From assembly GCA_963765765.1 (NCBI GenBank), contig CAVXYC010000003.1, forward strand, positions 1-16,806: a DNA stretch of 16,806 nt, in the 5' to 3' direction. Below the pieces are notes generated by a model. It worked only from the letters and a program-made list of their open reading frames with translations. It was not told where the DNA came from and ran no database searches. Position 1 is the stretch's first letter, and every line of letters starts with the position of its first letter. Source of the DNA: an uncultured Chloroflexia bacterium (GTDB lineage: Bacteria; Chloroflexota; UBA6077; JACCZL01). Shown piece after piece: positions 146 through 14,720 of this stretch. The position numbers were made by a program, and so were the translations under genes.

Positions 146-332
146 TGACTCCACGACTAACTCAATCAGCAGAAAGCGATGGATTCCGGCCGGCCGCCTT
201 TAACACCAGAGTTGCAGACCGCGACCGAAGAGCAGCCTGATCTAGACGGCCACGGTGGCCAGGACGATAGCGTGGCCGCTATTGGGCAGAAGTGCCTTTG
301 AGTAAAGCGAGTTGGCGGCTCGTCTCGGCCAG

Positions 333-1273
333 CTACGCCTGGTGGAGTCCGCGAGCCTGTCGCGAGCGAGCAATGAGCTGGCGTTCGTGGGCGCGAATCC
401 GTCGTGTTCGCGGAAGCTCCTTGAGATTCCAGCCCAAGGCATAGACAAAGATTGCGGCATTCGCTAGAAGATTGGACGGCCGCATCCGGCGCGTGATGGC
501 GTTGCTTGTGTCGACTTCGAGAAATGGATTGAATGCCAGACTCGCTGTAGCCAGCGTGATCCGCAGGCTGGTCATCAGGTCCGCGGTCTTGTAGTAGAAG
601 CGCAGGTTGTTGCGCATAGCCAGCTTCGAGGCGCGCAGCTTGACGCCGCCGAAGAAGCCGCCGGAGGTAATGCCACCGGGATCTCGCAGTTGAGCAGATG
701 GTCGCCGGCCTGCATCGCGCGCCACTGGAAGTCGTTCTCCTCGGCGTAGGCGAAGTAGACCTCGTCGATCAGGCCAACGCGGCGGTAGATTTCGGTCCGG
801 GCGATCATCGCGCCGCCCTTGACGTTGTCCGTCTCCAGACGCGCGGGGACTTGAGCGTCTTGCAGATGCGCTCGAACTCGTCCTCGTCGCCGCGCACGCC
901 ATCGCCGATCACGGTGAAGCCGAGCATCGCCGCGTCCGGGTGCGCCGCCAGCACGTCGAGCGACATCCGCACCCAGCGCGGGTGGTACTTCATGTCGTTG
1001 TTGAAGATACCGACGTACTCGGCGCCATTCTGGAGCGCCCACTTGATGCCGGTATTGCAGGCCGCGGCCGTGCCCCGATTGCGCCCGTGCTCAAGCACGG
1101 TCACTTGTGGGAATTGCTCCCGGGCGTAGGCGATACGAGTCGTCGGTCGAGCCATCGTCCACCACGATCACTTTGAAGTTCGGCCAATCGGTGGCCAGCA
1201 TCGACGGCACCGAGTAGGGCAGGTGCTCCAGCCCGTTGTAGTTGGTGATGACAGCGCACACGAGCGGCTCCAT
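333..1273 (-). CDS. Glycosyltransferase family 2, ~313 aa after repairing 3 frameshifts (~1135, ~835, ~670)
   Basis: Stitched from four ORFs: MEPLVCAVITNYNG...VIVVDDGSTDDS / NRGTAAACNTGIKWA...YVGIFNND / GGAMIARTEIYRRVGLIDEVYFAYAEENDFQWRA / RNNLRFYYK...HQA*. These are GT2 motifs in canonical order. ATG 1273 lies 5 nt after the SDR stop. Confidence 0.9.
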
Positions 1274-1278
1274 CGGGC

Positions 1279-2153
1279 TTAGCCGATCAGCGAGCGCGAG
1301 AAGCCGCCGTCTACGTTGACGGCGGCGCCGTTGACGTAGGAGGCGCGCTCCGAGCACAGGAAGACGATCACGCTGGCGATCTCCTCCGGCAGGGCCAGCC
1401 GACCCATCGGGCGGTAGGGCGCGCGGTCGTACTTCTGGAGGATCTCGGCAGGGTCCGTGCTCAGGCGGCGGGCCACCGTCTCGGCCATATCGCGCGCCAG
1501 CTCGGTGGCGGTGGTACCGGGGCAGACGCTGTTGACCAGGATGTTGTCGTTCAGCAGGTCGGCGGCCAGGCAGTTGGCCAGCGCGATCTCGGCCGACTTG
1601 GTCACGTGGTACTCCCACTGATTGGCGCCGCGCTGCCCGGCCACCAATCGACGAGACGAGTACGATCCGCCCCCAGCCGTTGCGGCGCAAATGCGGCAGC
1701 GCCGCGTGGACCAGCCAGATCGGCGCCCGGACATTGACCGTGTGCGAGTATTCCCAGTCGGCCTCGGTCGCGTCGTCGAAGCCGTAGGGCACGCTCCAGC
1801 TGCCCTGCTCATCGACTTTGAGAGGAACCTGGTTCGGATCGTGCGTCCGGTAGCGCTCGGCCATCACCGACGAACCGGCGTTATGAACGACGATGTCCAG
1901 CCTGCCGAACGTCTCCACGGTTTGCTGGACAAGCCGCTCGATCTCCTCGCGCCAGGGTGATGTCGGCCTGCGTCGCCAGCACCTTGGCGTCAAGCGCCTG
2001 CAGCTCCGCTTCGGCCACCAGCAGGCCCTCGCCGCCGCGCGCGCCAATGCTGACTCGGCAGCCCTCCTCGGCGAACATGCGCGCCGTGGCCAGGCCGATG
2101 CCCTTGCTGCCGCCGGTGATCAGCGCGACGCGACCGCGAATAGACAGGTCCAT
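1279..2153 (-). CDS. Classical (FabG-like) SDR oxidoreductase, ~290 aa after repairing 2 single-base insertions (~1955, ~1645)
   Basis: TGGSKGIG Rossmann motif, GRLDIVVHNAG, GRIVLVSS, catalytic YHVTK (1597-1611), VNSVCPG and C-terminal YVNGAAVNVDGG. The ATG overlaps the cupin stop (TAATG, 2151-2155). Confidence 0.9.
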
Positions 2154-2581
2154 TATGTGTGCCTCACGGGAGCGGGGTCGACCACCTCGGGGAACGTGTC
2201 GGCATCGGCCGGGTCGTACTCCTCGCTGATGTAGCCGACGACAACCAGTGCCTCATCGCCCGAGTTGACGATCGCATGGGTCTGGCCGGGCGGCACGTGG
2301 ATTGTCGCCGGGTTCTCGGCGTCCAGCGGATGGGTGGTCTGCTCGCCGTTCGTGCGATCGCGCAAGACCAACTCGCCCTTGCCATGGACGGCCACGAACC
2401 ACTCGTGCTTGCGGGTGTGGTAGTGATTGCCCTTGACGAAGCCCGGGTGGGCGGCGGTCACGTAGAGCTGACCGAAGGTCCGCTCCGGTAGGTGTCCGCC
2501 GCGCAGCAGCTCCACCACCCAGCCGCGCTGGTCGCGATGCATCTCCAGCGGCCGCACGTCCGGCTCAGATCTCGCTGACAT
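2153..2581 (-). CDS. Stand-alone cupin resembling the C-terminal epimerase domain of CapF/WbjC
   Basis: Intact 142-aa ORF with HRDQRG, GQLYV..HPG..KGNHYHTRKHEWF, VPPGQTHAIVNSG and EEYDPADADTF. GGAGG SD at 2588-2592; overlaps the dehydratase end by 17 nt. Confidence 0.85.
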   Translation of the reverse strand: MSARSEPDVRPLEMHRDQRGWVVELLRGGHLPERTFGQLYVTAAHPGFVKGNHYHTRKHEWFVAVHGKGELVLRDRTNGEQTTHPLDAENPATIHVPPGQTHAIVNSGDEALVVVGYISEEYDPADADTFPEVVDPAPVRHT

Positions 2582-3587
2582 ACGCCACCTCCGTCGGCGC
2601 GAGCCAGCCCTCGCGCTCGAGGATCTCGGCTAGCTCGGCCTTGTTGAGCAGATAGGTGTTAGCCGAGGTGTACTCCGCCATGCTGACCCGTGGCCGCTCG
2701 GCGTAGGCCGCACGCATCCGCTCGGAGAAGAGCTGCGGCAGGATGATGAAGGTATCGCCGTGGTCCACCGTGCGCTGTGCCTCCTCTTCCGAGACGAGCA
2801 CCTCGTGCATCTTCTCACCAGGCCGCGTGCCCACCTCCTGGATCGGCACACGGCCGTTGGGCGAAAGCCGCTCGACCAGCACCTCGGCCAGGTCGATCAC
2901 CCACGCGGCCGGCCCCTTGAGGACGAAGATCTCGCCGCCGTGGCTGTGCTCGAGCGCCTGGAAGATCAGGCTGGTGGCCTGCTCCAGGCTGATGATAAAG
3001 CGGGTCATCTCCGGCACGGTCACCGTCACCGGACGGCCCTGGCGGATCTGGCTGCGGAAGAGCGGGATCACCGAGCCGCGTGAGCCAAGCACGTTTCCAT
3101 AGCGGACGCACGCCACGGTAGGGCCCAATCCGTCCAAGCCGGCCGCGACGATCAGGCGCTCCTGCAGGGACTTAGTAATACCCATGACATTGACCGGCTT
3201 CACGGCCTTGTCCGTGCTGATCGCGATGAGTCGTTCGACGCCCGCCTCCCGCGCGACCTCGATGACGTTATTGGCACCCAGCACATTTGTCTTGATCGCT
3301 TCCATGGGCGCGTATTCGCACGACGGTACCTGCTTGAGCGCCGCGGCGTGAAAAACAACGTCCACGCCACGCATAGCTGGTTGGAGGGACGCGGTATCGC
3401 GGACATCGCCGAGCATGAAGCGCAGCCTCTGCACGTCGCCATACGCATGGCGCATGTCATCTTGCTTCTTCTCGTCGCGCGAGAAGACACGAATCTCCTT
3501 CACGCCGCGCCGGACGAGCTCACGCACAGTGTACTGGCCGAAGGATCCTGTCCCGCCCGTAACCAGCACGACCTTGTTTTCTAGCAT
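2565..3587 (-). CDS. fnlA: Soluble UDP-GlcNAc 4,6-dehydratase/5-epimerase, CapE/WbjB/FnlA type (Polysacc_synt_2)
   Basis: Intact 340-aa ORF with TGGTGSFG, FSRDEKKQDDMR, HAAALKQVPSCE, STDKAVKPVNVMGITK (Met replaces the SDR Tyr, as in CapE), VRYGNVLGSRGSVIP, MTRF and RPGEKMHE. No N-terminal membrane domain. Confidence 0.9.
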   Translation of the reverse strand: MLENKVVLVTGGTGSFGQYTVRELVRRGVKEIRVFSRDEKKQDDMRHAYGDVQRLRFMLGDVRDTASLQPAMRGVDVVFHAAALKQVPSCEYAPMEAIKTNVLGANNVIEVAREAGVERLIAISTDKAVKPVNVMGITKSLQERLIVAAGLDGLGPTVACVRYGNVLGSRGSVIPLFRSQIRQGRPVTVTVPEMTRFIISLEQATSLIFQALEHSHGGEIFVLKGPAAWVIDLAEVLVERLSPNGRVPIQEVGTRPGEKMHEVLVSEEEAQRTVDHGDTFIILPQLFSERMRAAYAERPRVSMAEYTSANTYLLNKAELAEILEREGWLAPTEVAYVSEI

Positions 3588-3592
3588 CCAAT

Positions 3593-3598
3593 CTCCTT
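3593..3598 (-). promoter_or_regulatory. Shine-Dalgarno site of the dehydratase gene
   Basis: AAGGAG 5 nt upstream of ATG 3587. Confidence 0.75.
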
Positions 3599-3680
3599 CA
3601 CGATGTGCGCCGCTAAGGATGCCCCGAATGGGGGAGCCTACGCCAGCCTGTGACCCACTAGGCCACCCTATGAATCATGC

Positions 3681-5023
3681 TCAGACTCCATCCGCGGTCG
3701 GCCCGCGCGAACGAGTCACGCCATGCTTCACTAGCTGCGCATACCAGCCGATCTCCCGCCAGCCCGGTATGAGCGCTGCCACGGGTGATCGCGAGTGTTT
3801 GAGATACAGTGCAGCCATGATACAGGCGCCCAACACGTATGCGATGGAGAGTCCAGCTGAGGCCCCGGTGATTCCGAGCCACTGTATAAGCGTAATCTGA
3901 AGCAGGCTCGCAAGGATGAGATTGAACCAGGCGACCAGCGACGGCGTCCCGAACCGCTTCACCGAGACGAAATACCCGGAGAGCAGCTGAGTAATCCCGT
4001 GCGCCACGACACAGGGCAAGGCCACGACTAACGGTTCGTACGAAGGCAGAAAGCCCTGGCCGTAAAGCAGAATGATTCCGCCCGGCCCACCACTAGGAGC
4101 GTGAGCGCCGCGGCAAGGAGCCACAGCAGCGTGTGGCGGCACACGGAGCCCGGTGATCTCGGCGATGTCGCTGGACTGATCGCCGAACTGAGCCAGCTCC
4201 GTCTGGAGGACCACGCGGGTCGCAAGTGATACGAAGAGTGTCCAGCGCGCCAAGCCGAGCCCGGTCGTGTACCAGCCCACTGCCTCAAGGCCCACCATGC
4301 TGTTGACGATGAACACGCCAATCTCCGCCGCGAGAAACGCGGCTATCATCCCAAGCTGCACCGAATTACCGGCGCGCGCGACGGTTTTCGCGAGCGAGCG
4401 GTTGAAGGACCACGGCCAGCCATTGCGGCGCAGCAGGACACCCACACTGACGAGCGCGGCCAGCATCTCCGCGCCAACGTACGCATACATAGCCATCTTG
4501 ATTGGCTCGGAGACCGGCAGGAACACGATGGCCGTGAGCAGGCACAGCGCCCCCGCGCGCAGTACGGTGAGCGCGTTGTACGCCACCAGGTCACCCTGGA
4601 GCTGAATCACCCGGCTTGAGAACTGAAAGCTCAAACTGAATGCCGTGGAAGCAACTGCGACGGTCAGGAGTGGCAGCTCCACGCCGCGGAACGCGCTGTC
4701 CGTGAACGCTAGATACAAGGCGGGTAGGAGCAGCAGCGCCAACACACCGGAGCCGATGGCGATGACCTGCGTGGTTCCAGCCAGCGACCGCGCCGGGTGT
4801 TCGGGTCGATTCACATAGCTCAGGAGCACTTCGGGCACGCCCCATTGAGCCAGCGCGGCAATCACGCCTGCCGCGCGTAGAGCGACGCTATAGGCGCCCT
4901 TCCCCTCCGTTCCAAGCACCGGGCGATGATGACGCTCGTGACTAGGGCAAAGCCGAAACTCACGATGAGCGCGCCAAAGCTCAAGACGCTGCCCCGGACG
5001 ATCCGCCCACGACGCGCGCTCAC
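3681..5023 (-). CDS. wzx: Wzx-type polysaccharide flippase, ~447 aa after repairing frameshifts at ~4920, ~4150 and ~4085
   Basis: GTG 5023 gives MSARRGRIVRGSVLSFGALIVSFGFALVTSVIIAR, continuing into VLGTEGKGAYS; also has GLEAVGWY, LLYGQGF and WLGITGASAGLSIAY with many hydrophobic segments. Between ~4150 and ~4085 the alternative frame restores a TM helix (SVCRHTLLWLLAAALTLLVVG). Confidence 0.85.
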
Positions 5024-12589: not shown

Positions 12590-14497
12590 TCAGCGACGTC
12601 GGAACCAGTGCTCGTGCCACAGAGCCAGATTCAGGAGGTTCCAGATCTTGAAGCTATTGTCTGCTCGCTGATCACGCTGATCGTCCAGCAAAGCCTGAAC
12701 CGCTCGGGGCTCGAAGTGCTCACGAATGATCGACGCCCCCGGTAGCACCTGTTGTGAAAACTGGAGCAATCGAGGCGAGAGCATATTGCGCGAGGAGCCA
12801 CAGAAACCCGCTTTCTGCCGATAAATGATCTCGGGGGGCAGTATCCCCTCGGCCGCGCGCTTGAGCACGTACTTCGTCTCGCCGTCGCGGTATTTCAGCG
12901 TGGACGGGATACTCAAGGCTAGCTCGACGACCTTGTGATCCAGGAATGGCACTCGCGCCTCGATGGACTGGGCCATTGACATCTTGTCCACGCGCATGAG
13001 CAAAAGCTCGGGTAAGCGGTGATTCAGCTCCAGGAATGTCATCCGGTGGAGCTGATCCTGACCCGGAGCAAGAGTCTCCAGGCGATCAAGCTGCGCACGA
13101 ATGACATCGAACGAGTCCACAGGAGCGTGACCGTTACGACGATTCAACAGCAAGTCGCGCTTTTCCGATTCCCAGAAGGCAATCGCGCCACTCCAGAACA
13201 GCTCGCGGTCATGCGCAGCCCGATGCAGAAAGTCCCGCCGCGTGGGCGATAGCGAGGGTCCCACGAGCGTGGAGGCAGCACCGCGGAGCAGGCCAGGCAT
13301 CCGCATGAATGGCTTCCAGGCTCGGTTGTAGAACGAGAGGTAGCGTTGCCAGCCGGTATAGCCACAGAAGAGCTCATCGGATCCCTCGCCAACCTGGACC
13401 ACGATGGTGCCATTCTTCCGCGCCAACTCGGATACGAAGTGAATCGGCACGCACACCGGATCCGCGAGCGGCTCATCCTGGTGGTACACCATCTTGCGGG
13501 AAGAAATCGACAAACGTCTGGTCGTTGATGGTGGTCTCGTGGTGGTTGGCGCCGAACTCCTTGGCGACCTGGCGAGCCCAGTGAAATTCGTCGCTGATCT
13601 CGTCGCCCTCGATGCTGACCGAGAACGTATCCACCGGACGGTCCATCAGCTCGCTCATGAGCGCCACGTTCAAGCTGGAATCGAGCCCACCACTCAGGAA
13701 CACGCCGAATGGCACGTCGCTCATCATGCGCAGCTTGACTGACTCTCGAAGCTTCTCACGCAAACGCTCTACGTATTCCCACTCAGGTCGAGGCGGATCA
13801 TCCTCGCGGAAGCACGCGGGGTCCCAGTAGCGCCGTGTTGAAATATCGCCGCCTGCTGAAACGGTCATCGTATGACCGGGTGGCAGCTTCTGGATGCCCC
13901 TGAACAACGTGAACGGTGCTGGTGTGGACGCGAACGTCAAGATAGTGATGCAGCGCTTCCTGATCTAGCTCACGCGAAACCAGCGGATGGGATAAGAGCG
14001 CCTTGATCTCAGAGGCAAACAGGAAGACGCCATCGCGCACGGTGTAGTAAAGCGGCTTGATACCGATACGGTCGCGCGCCATGAACAGCCGTTGCTGGCG
14101 CTCATCCCAGATGGCAAAAGCAAACATTCCCCTGAGATAGTTGACGCAGTCCGCCCCATACTCTTCATAGAGATGGACGATCGTCTCAGTATCCGCACGG
14201 GTGCGATACGGATGGCCGCGTCGCTCGAGCTCCGAGCGGTGATCGGCGTGGTTGTAGATCTCGCCGTTGAACACGATCCAGACATCGTCCGTCTCATTGG
14301 CCATCGGCTGATGGCCGCCGGCAAGGTCTACGATGCTGAGGCGACGAAATCCCAGCCCGACGCGATGATCCGGCGAGATGTAAAGTCCGCCGTCGTCCGG
14401 ACCTCGATGAAGCATGGTGTCTGACATCGCTTCGACGAGCTCAGGGTGTGACCGGCTCGGAGCGACCGAAATTAAATACGCCGCAGATTCCGCACAT
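12590..14497 (-). CDS. asnB: Asparagine synthase (glutamine-hydrolysing) family amidotransferase, ~634 aa after repairing 3 single-base insertions (~14445, ~13940, ~13495)
   Basis: ATG 14497 gives MCGICG (Ntn catalytic Cys); also HRGPDD, RRLSIVDL, FNGEIYNH, ARDRIGIKPLYY, FASEIKAL, LSGGLDSS, GEGSDELFCGY and RVDKMSMAQSIEARVPFLDH. Confidence 0.92.
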
Positions 14498-14511
14498 GGA
14501 GGGGCGCGGGA

Positions 14512-14517
14512 ATTATA
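14512..14517 (-). promoter_or_regulatory. Candidate sigma70 -10 box for asnB
   Basis: Perfect TATAAT on the minus strand, 14 nt upstream of the ATG, in a GC-rich context; no convincing -35. Confidence 0.6.
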
Positions 14518-14720
14518 TGCCGAACTGCAATTGAGGCCTCTGGTCCTCGTGGCCCAGAAGTCCACGGAGAGAGACATCAGCCTCCCATGTGAATCACGGA
14601 TGGAATTTCTATTCCAGCCCTGGACCCGATGTTTCCGTCTGACTGCTCCATATCGGCTGGGGTGTACGACTGGAACGGAAATACCAAGCGAGCGACAACG
14701 GGTCAGAGCACGCATGCGCT

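Follow-up and report, generated by a model that had tools for sequence, protein, structure and literature searches.

Contig CAVXYC010000003.1 of an uncultured Chloroflexia bacterium (assembly GCA_963765765.1) carries a polysaccharide operon on its minus strand, with the gene order wzx, capE-type dehydratase, cupin, short-chain dehydrogenase/reductase (SDR) and GT2 glycosyltransferase. The window analyzed here is this entire contig, contig C3 (16,806 bp) of a 6.49 Mb assembly in 33 contigs. We propose that the operon specifies a three-enzyme route from UDP-N-acetylglucosamine (UDP-GlcNAc) to a UDP-2-acetamido-2,6-dideoxy-L-hexose. The dehydratase, which has the MxxxK active site, would form UDP-2-acetamido-2,6-dideoxy-beta-L-arabino-hex-4-ulose with inversion at C5, a step for which the homology is strong. 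The free metal-binding cupin would then epimerize C3, as the role of the cupin domain in CapF suggests, and the adjacent classical SDR of 290 amino acids (aa) would reduce the 4-keto group, the position of its gene being what points to this step. Homology gives good support to the first two steps, CapE-type dehydration and C3 epimerization by the cupin. A 4-keto sugar needs reduction or amination, and within the operon the classical SDR is the sole candidate for this; therefore, the SDR as C4 reductase is the most economical reading. It is based on gene position and on the lack of an alternative, with no support from conservation, and we regard it as almost evenly balanced between right and wrong.

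The product of this route would be UDP-N-acetyl-L-rhamnosamine (UDP-L-RhaNAc) or UDP-N-acetyl-L-pneumosamine (UDP-L-PneNAc). These sugars are C4 epimers, and the stereochemistry at C4 is not predictable. Without a 2-epimerase of the CapG type the sugar would pass directly to the GT2 enzyme encoded downstream. A Pfam scan of the window found no UDP-GlcNAc 2-epimerase (PF02350), as the first-pass annotation of this DNA had stated for CapG, and no reductase or aminotransferase besides the SDR.

A CapE-type dehydratase and a free-standing cupin

The dehydratase gene (2565..3587, minus strand) encodes a protein of 340 aa that was assigned as a CapE/FnlA-type UDP-GlcNAc 4,6-dehydratase/5-epimerase. 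The protein matched Pfam Polysacc_synt_2 (PF02719) with 337 bits. Its best solved relatives were FnlA of A. baumannii (4j2o, E 2.2e-93) and CapE of S. aureus (3vvb, 1e-86), followed by FlaA1/PseB (2gn4, 5.5e-73). In the alignment of the active site (STDK...MGITK), MGITK lies over MGISK of CapE, with Met replacing the Tyr of other SDRs. The STDKA motif and the Glu of GEK fall on D125, K126 and E257 of CapE, and the Met of MxxxK falls on M134. According to the available excerpt of the CapE study, activity depends on these four residues, and the CapE group is defined by MxxxK in place of YxxxK together with a "latch" loop (PMC3699295). A segment of similar length aligned with the CapE latch (residues 287-309), with weak similarity. 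The NCBIfam scores for PseB (336.2 bits, cut-off 407.75) and FnlA (330.6 bits, equivalog cut-off 730) were both below the cut-offs. We also compared 43 cupin-linked dehydratases from elsewhere with at least 200 bits to the window protein: 36 have Met and seven have Tyr at the MxxxK position. The motif AVKPVN.MG of the window dehydratase fits the subgroup that usually adjoins an RmlD-like reductase, and not the FnlA-like subgroup with AVYPINAMG. Taken together, the sequence comparisons confirmed the predicted place of the protein in the MxxxK subfamily of CapE/FnlA-type dehydratases.

The cupin gene (2153..2581, minus strand; 142 aa as written) starts with ATG at 2581 and overlaps the end of the dehydratase gene, which has its stop at 2567-2565, by 17 nt (2565..2581, minus strand). 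A GGAGG sequence resembling a Shine-Dalgarno site (2588..2592, minus strand) lies 6 nt ahead of the cupin ATG. The junction was free of gaps in metagenome contigs from two sequencing runs that are described below (X1 record 6, 2487-3004; X2 record 14, 2505-2748). The cupin matched the complete PF14667 profile (positions 1-111 of 111, 96 bits) and, by phmmer, residues 240-355 of Cap5F (E 9e-16). The match to the NCBIfam model WbcJ was restricted to positions 251-368 (65 bits, cut-off 500). The N-terminal extended-SDR reductase domain is not fused to the window cupin, and the gene encodes a cupin alone. Thus, the first-pass annotation was right in naming a CapE-type dehydratase that overlaps by 17 nt with a CapF-type cupin encoded by its own gene.

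The pocket of the cupin also resembled that of CapF. Residues H53, H55, E60 and H102 were invariant in 41 aligned free cupins, and K50, G51, H53 and F62 aligned with K285, G286, H288 and F297 of CapF. As described in the accessible part of the CapF study, the latter residues line the Zn pocket, and the cupin domain epimerizes the CapE product with Zn before the SDR domain reduces it with NADPH (PMC5393024). An AlphaFold model of the cupin, built from the alignment of 41 sequences, had a predicted local distance difference test score (pLDDT) of 94.4. Its top five fold matches in the PDB were all CapF, with template modeling (TM) scores of 0.80-0.81, root-mean-square deviations of 1.5-2.4 Å and E-values of about 1e-12. 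Epimerases of the RmlC/ChmJ type came next, with E-values of about 3e-7. These results supported that the cupin is the C-terminal domain of CapF as a separate gene. It could also be a 3,4-ketoisomerase like FdtA/QdtA and no 3-epimerase, in which case a 3-keto sugar would be formed and reduced by the SDR. Pfam shows a weaker match to FdtA, and the structure of an FdtA mutant appeared at rank 31 among the distant fold matches. However, the FdtA match reached 37.6 bits against 96 bits for PF14667, and CapF led the structural matches by six orders of magnitude in E-value. We consider a ketoisomerase highly improbable and retain the C3 epimerase.

The classical SDR, its reading frame and its neighbors

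The SDR gene (1279..2153, minus strand) comprises 290 codons when two extra bases are omitted and starts with an ATG at 2153, inside the letters TAATG. As deposited it is spread over three frames, which matched adh_short positions 1-60 (frame from 2153), 61-142 and 141-195 (adh_short_C2 133-236) in Pfam. Read across the breaks, it contains TGGSKGIG, NAG and S...YHVTK, and all catalytic motifs are present. A polar insert of about 25 aa follows NAG and was found in none of nine aligned homologs, which were taken from 120 listed ones. An Arg after the second beta-strand suggests the use of NADPH. In NCBIfam the protein matched generic SDR families only. The description as a FabG-like SDR starting in TAATG was therefore correct with regard to motifs and start codon, while the two frame breaks had been overlooked.

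We checked the frames with Logan contigs from four soil-metagenome runs (X1-X4, from three studies), which were compared over positions 300-3700 and were 93-99% identical to the window. The base at 1636, located in a G/C run and representing the second frame break, was left out in X1 (4.46 of 4.46 depth), X2 (2.7 of 2.7) and X4 (2.4 of 5.18). The base at 1954, the first frame break, was left out in X1 only. One X1 contig (record 3) covers 1470-2003 and shows 12 other letters, with gaps exactly at 1954 and 1636. The X3 contig ends at 1636-1637 and the X4 contig ends at 1953, and they were uninformative at these sites. When both bases, which are probably extra, were omitted, a single frame of 290 codons ran from the start at 2153 to the unchanged stop. 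The contigs also showed indels in the GT2 gene at 667, 674, 834 and 1134. When all four were applied, a frame of 313 codons was obtained, compared to 60 codons as written.

Frame breaks of this kind were not limited to the operon. In rpoB (C20:326017-329370) model positions 599-724 lie in a different frame from the remainder, uvrA (C20:424314-427273) is spread over three frames and its paralogs are fragmented too, and a UDP-GlcNAc 2-epimerase gene on another contig (C1:166754-167750) occupies two frames. Because independent contigs lack the extra bases and because rpoB, uvrA and the 2-epimerase gene are broken in the same way, we concluded that the breaks in the SDR and GT2 genes are assembly errors and no gene decay. 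Decay of the locus, with SDR and GT2 as true pseudogenes and the pathway dead, would agree with the two breaks in the SDR and the several breaks in GT2 as deposited. Nevertheless, contigs of 93-99% identity restore both frames, and even the essential rpoB gene of this assembly is affected; the pseudogene reading was rejected, and we give it next to no credence. Any reading of a pseudogene or a gene overlap in this genome needs accurate reads. One amidotransferase of the window (asnB-like, 12590-14715) has its Asn_synthase and GATase regions in separate open reading frames (ORFs). An apparent joint of 1570 to 2526 in X1 and X2, skipping 955 bases, was discarded: its shorter side has only 21 letters and is probably a chance or foreign match.

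The metagenome contigs also affected the transition from cupin to SDR, for which coupling by TAATG had been claimed. The letters are present, and one base of the C-run at 2174-2177 is absent in the contigs of X1 and X2, two runs from the same study. With one base fewer, the cupin ends four codons earlier, at the TGA at 2164-2166 and about 10 nt ahead of the SDR ATG, and a GAGG sequence lies between this end and the ATG. The C-run is probably one base too long, and the true length of the cupin is probably 138 aa. Since the X1 and X2 contigs lack this base and the cupin then stops earlier, the TAATG overlap is probably an assembly artifact. With either end of the cupin the two genes are tightly packed.

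Tight packing extends through the operon: the overlap of 17 nt is followed by a distance of about 0-10 nt between cupin and SDR and by 5 nt between the SDR stop and the start of GT2 (333..1273, minus strand; pieces of PF00535 in two frames, the gene being frame-broken in the window). On the other side, the gene for a Wzx-type flippase (3681..4919, minus strand; Pfam PF01943, 30.5 bits) lies 93 nt upstream of the dehydratase gene in the same direction. Farther along the contig, Pfam identified a Wzy_C/O-antigen-ligase-like protein, two PMT_2 glycosyltransferase-like proteins, TPR and FG-GAP proteins and an amidotransferase of the asparagine-synthase type.

The position of the SDR gene would also fit a different order of events, in which the 4-keto sugar is first moved to a lipid carrier and is then reduced in its lipid-linked form by the classical SDR. 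Such an order would resemble the reduction after transfer described for WreQ of Rhizobium etli, and also DprE2, a classical-SDR enzyme acting on a lipid-linked keto-sugar. That the SDR is not of the extended type known for nucleotide sugars is consistent with this order. On the other hand, the Pfam scan found no initiating phosphoglycosyl transferase in the window, and the insert of about 25 aa is polar and not hydrophobic. Reduction on the lipid carrier thus appeared improbable, and reduction of the UDP-sugar by the classical SDR is the reading followed below.

Candidate reductases in the genome and at related loci

The dehydratase and the cupin may also act as proposed while the C4 reduction is performed by an extended SDR encoded elsewhere, and the classical SDR may serve another step of polysaccharide formation (another sugar or a non-sugar substituent). 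Candidates for such a reductase are an orphan RmlD-like protein (C14:189124-190032), a generic protein of the Epimerase family, or a gene that lies past the contig end or belongs to the 8% of the genome absent from the assembly. The assembly is estimated to be 91.8% complete and 6.85% contaminated. We searched it with profiles that were built from cupin-adjacent reductases of the Epimerase type and of the RmlD-like type. In the 92%-complete genome, the window included, we found no full-length CapF/WbjC and no reductase of the CapF-N type: the best score on the Epimerase-type profile was 132 bits, compared to 214-442 bits for true partners. A CapF-type reductase nearby, which the first-pass annotation had named as evidence against its proposal, was thus not found.

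A search elsewhere in the genome had also been suggested for rmlD and capG. The RmlD-like gene on C14 is the best of its kind, scoring 249 bits for Pfam RmlD_sub_bind and 225 bits on the cupin-linked RmlD-like profile, and its presence agrees with a reductase encoded elsewhere. However, true partners score 277-488 bits on this profile, and the neighbors of the gene are unrelated (phosphoenolpyruvate carboxylase, prephenate dehydratase). Since rmlB (397 bits, exceeding its cut-off) and rmlC (200 bits) are likewise present, dispersed over further contigs of the genome, an ordinary role in dTDP-rhamnose formation explains the C14 gene. The sole PF02350 gene of the genome, located on C1, is accompanied by a WecC-like dehydrogenase, a GT4 and a WbpM-like dehydratase; this is no CapG context. 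On contig C15 (C15:206457-208745), a frame of 763 aa carries an RmlD-like domain in its C-terminal third only (residues 484-738) and represents a fusion.

We then analyzed how free cupins are arranged elsewhere. An exhaustive search of 1.84 billion protein representatives with the cupin yielded 1,953 matches with E-values of up to 1e-3, of which 571 had values of 1e-10 or lower; the top match was 46% identical. Among the best 150 matches, 113 were shorter than 200 aa, six had 200-299 aa and 31 had at least 300 aa, the last group being the fused CapF-like form. A homologue search with the cupin returned the protein itself and one match with 42% identity. Cupin matches in 12 of 41 related genomes were rejected as orthologs: they were RmlC-like cupins of 150 aa beside ABC transporters and dehydrogenases. 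Based on an alignment of nine cupin sequences we collected 160 related loci, namely the best 80 of 121 confirmed loci in genomes and the best 80 of 378 in metagenomes. Many of the genome loci come from Nitrospinota; others are from bacteria of the Candidate Phyla Radiation (CPR), from DPANN and other archaea, and from metagenome-assembled genomes (MAGs) of Binatia, Acidobacteriota and Myxococcota. Free CapF-type cupins are thus common and widespread in uncultured lineages.

The usual partner was an extended SDR. A gene for such a protein lies directly upstream of the cupin at 61 of the 80 genome loci (45 of the Epimerase type with 270-285 aa, 16 RmlD-like) and at 67 of the 80 metagenome loci (48 and 19, respectively), with slightly different distance rules for the two sets; nine further metagenome loci had no room upstream on the contig. 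Four of the reductases with 270-285 aa were tested against NCBIfam. Two of them, both accompanied by an FnlA-like dehydratase, had WbcJ positions 2-213 as top match (about 106 bits), and for the remaining two the model for dTDP-glucose dehydratase scored equally or higher. Because the N-terminal two-thirds of WbcJ is the top model for two of the four, the proteins of 270-285 aa look like a detached N-terminal domain of CapF/FnlB.

Several arrangements could be distinguished. At seven annotated loci an SDR of the CapF-N type (about 270 aa) and a free cupin occur with an FnlA-like dehydratase that has a PF08485 tail. A 2-epimerase gene follows at five of them (L046, L066, L074, L075, L101), and none was present in the annotated part of L069 and L087. 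This set is the predicted split-FnlB form of the pathway to N-acetyl-L-fucosamine (L-FucNAc). Its hosts are CPR bacteria and one gammaproteobacterial MAG. A second arrangement is a trio in the order dehydratase, RmlD-like reductase and cupin, with no 2-epimerase at nine of ten annotated loci; at L052 a 2-epimerase gene is located between the RmlD-like gene and the cupin gene. This trio probably makes UDP-L-RhaNAc or a relative. It was seen at L032, L033, L050, L057, L061, L081, L086, L102 and 19 metagenome loci; with its MxxxK dehydratase it occurs in MAGs of Binatia, Myxococcota, Actinomycetota and others and is apparently undescribed. At a further locus (L194:1134-4384) an MxxxK dehydratase is followed by a PglD-like acetyltransferase, a DegT aminotransferase, the free cupin and Wzx, so an aminotransferase, and not a reductase, would finish the 4-keto sugar there. 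About 70 loci, mostly from Nitrospinota (e.g., L038, L043, L054), have the cupin after a CapF-N-like SDR of about 285 aa, and none of them has a CapE-type dehydratase (at least 200 bits) within 5 kb. Two more Epimerase-family genes of about 320 aa are often found upstream at the Nitrospinota loci. Only L108 has the dehydratase directly upstream of the cupin as in the window; its dehydratase carries YxxxK, and the cupin is not followed by an SDR.

The order dehydratase, cupin and classical SDR was found in the window only, out of a total of 161 loci. The free cupin is not peculiar to this locus, and its classical-SDR partner is. The first-pass annotation had described a "split CapF" pathway and had suggested a search for conserved neighborhoods of capE, cupin and classical SDR, the lack of which would speak against its proposal. 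A split CapF is not special to this locus, since free cupins occur widely and as a rule come after the gene for an extended SDR. The search for the neighborhood was negative in other lineages, with a classical SDR at none of the 160 related loci. The replacement of the CapF reductase by the classical SDR would fit the logic of the operon, and this locus is the only example.

Several observations weigh against the classical SDR as C4 reductase. With a profile from 119 classical SDRs we detected none within 4-5 kb of the cupin at the 80 genome loci and none at the 80 metagenome loci; the lone match in each set was a CapE-like ORF (23 bits). The three pieces of the window SDR, used as queries, had no match in either set. 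At L121, which encodes the nearest relative of the cupin (53% identity), the cupin gene comes directly after the end of an extended-SDR gene. In a quick tree with long branches the window cupin was tentatively paired with that of L121 on a long branch, with a support of 92 (not starred) in the Shimodaira-Hasegawa-like approximate likelihood ratio test (SH-aLRT), and no conclusion on its origin was drawn from this tree. The SDR has no close relatives: among 401 genomes of the phylum the best match had 40% identity across its middle part, and in a large protein set the best ones had 44-54% identity across its C-terminal part. We know of no classical SDR that reduces an NDP-4-keto sugar, and none is described as a nucleotide-sugar 4-ketoreductase in the accessible parts of the open literature that was searched. 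Furthermore, the contig stops about 330 nt past GT2 and the genome is 92% complete, so the reductase could be off-contig, and the RmlD-like protein of C14 could moonlight as reductase.

In favor of a reductase gene located elsewhere, each of the 128 loci whose adjacent reductase was identified has an extended SDR, the contig of 16.8 kb ends just past GT2, and the window SDR resembles generic SDRs only. However, the SDR gene is flanked by cupin and GT2 at distances not exceeding about 10 nt, which would be an odd site for an unrelated enzyme, and the C14 gene is accounted for as described above. We consider a reductase from elsewhere rather unlikely and prefer the classical SDR of the operon, which would then occupy the place of the extended SDR of the CapF-N or RmlD type at related loci. 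Free cupins pair with varied enzymes for the 4-keto group (CapF-N-type SDRs, RmlD-type SDRs, and aminotransferase with acetyltransferase at L194), and this variety makes a change of partner plausible. We tentatively propose, with doubt outweighing belief, that the free cupin is a modular C3 epimerase that works with at least four kinds of finishing enzymes, and that this locus has the first classical (FabG-like) SDR, with an insert of about 25 aa, as C4 ketoreductase in a UDP-2-acetamido-2,6-dideoxy-L-hexose pathway, a non-orthologous displacement.

L-FucNAc, L-PneNAc, L-RhaNAc and N-acetyl-L-quinovosamine (L-QuiNAc) are rare L-N-acetyl-6-deoxyhexoses that mark bacterial surfaces, and their pathways are annotated by the template of CapE, CapF and CapG. 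If our proposal is true, annotation rules that seek extended SDRs miss routes with a classical SDR, and enzymologists making these UDP-sugars would gain a new reductase scaffold. The open literature searched, supplements excluded, contained no description of a free CapF-type cupin or of a split CapF/FnlB.

Relation to known pathways

The systems most similar to the window locus are CapE/CapF/CapG of S. aureus, WbjB/C/D of P. aeruginosa O11 and FnlA/B/C. They share with it an MxxxK first enzyme and a cupin homologous to the C-terminal part of CapF, with the same metal and pocket residues and the same fold. In contrast to CapE/CapF/CapG, the cupin of the window is encoded by a separate gene, the N-terminal extended SDR of CapF is missing and a classical SDR is present instead, and the locus has no 2-epimerase of the CapG/FnlC type.

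The UDP-L-RhaNAc/UDP-L-QuiNAc pathways of V. cholerae O37 (WbvB/WbvR/WbvD) and Megavirus (Mg534/Mg535/Mg536) have an extended SDR as reductase and, to our knowledge, need no cupin. As far as the accessible parts of the reports go, the C4 reductase of both is an enzyme separate from the CapE-like dehydratase, which is the likeness to the window, and the trio with the RmlD-like reductase resembles the logic of WbvB/WbvR for UDP-L-RhaNAc with a cupin added (PMC6765297, PMC10117803). The window differs from both pathways by the presence of a cupin and by a candidate reductase that is a classical SDR.

A stand-alone cupin epimerase acting on a 4-keto nucleotide sugar, followed by a separate reductase, is also found in the heptose modification of Campylobacter jejuni, for which the accessible part of the literature describes C3/C5 epimerases of the cupin type and C4 reductases as separate enzymes (PMC7949155; PDB 7m14, 7an4, 8dco). 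These enzymes differ in that they use GDP-heptoses, their cupins are RmlC-like and appeared only among the distant fold matches, and their reductases are extended SDRs.

The loci collected here that combine a free cupin with a separate extended-SDR reductase (L030-L197, from uncultured Nitrospinota, CPR bacteria, DPANN archaea, Binatia and others) have a PF14667 cupin of 130-150 aa and often an MxxxK dehydratase in the operon, as does the window. Unlike the FnlA-like neighbors of split FnlB, the window dehydratase lacks the PF08485 tail. In the collected loci the reductase, of the CapF-N or RmlD type, is encoded immediately upstream of the cupin; in the window this place belongs to the dehydratase, and the classical SDR lies downstream.

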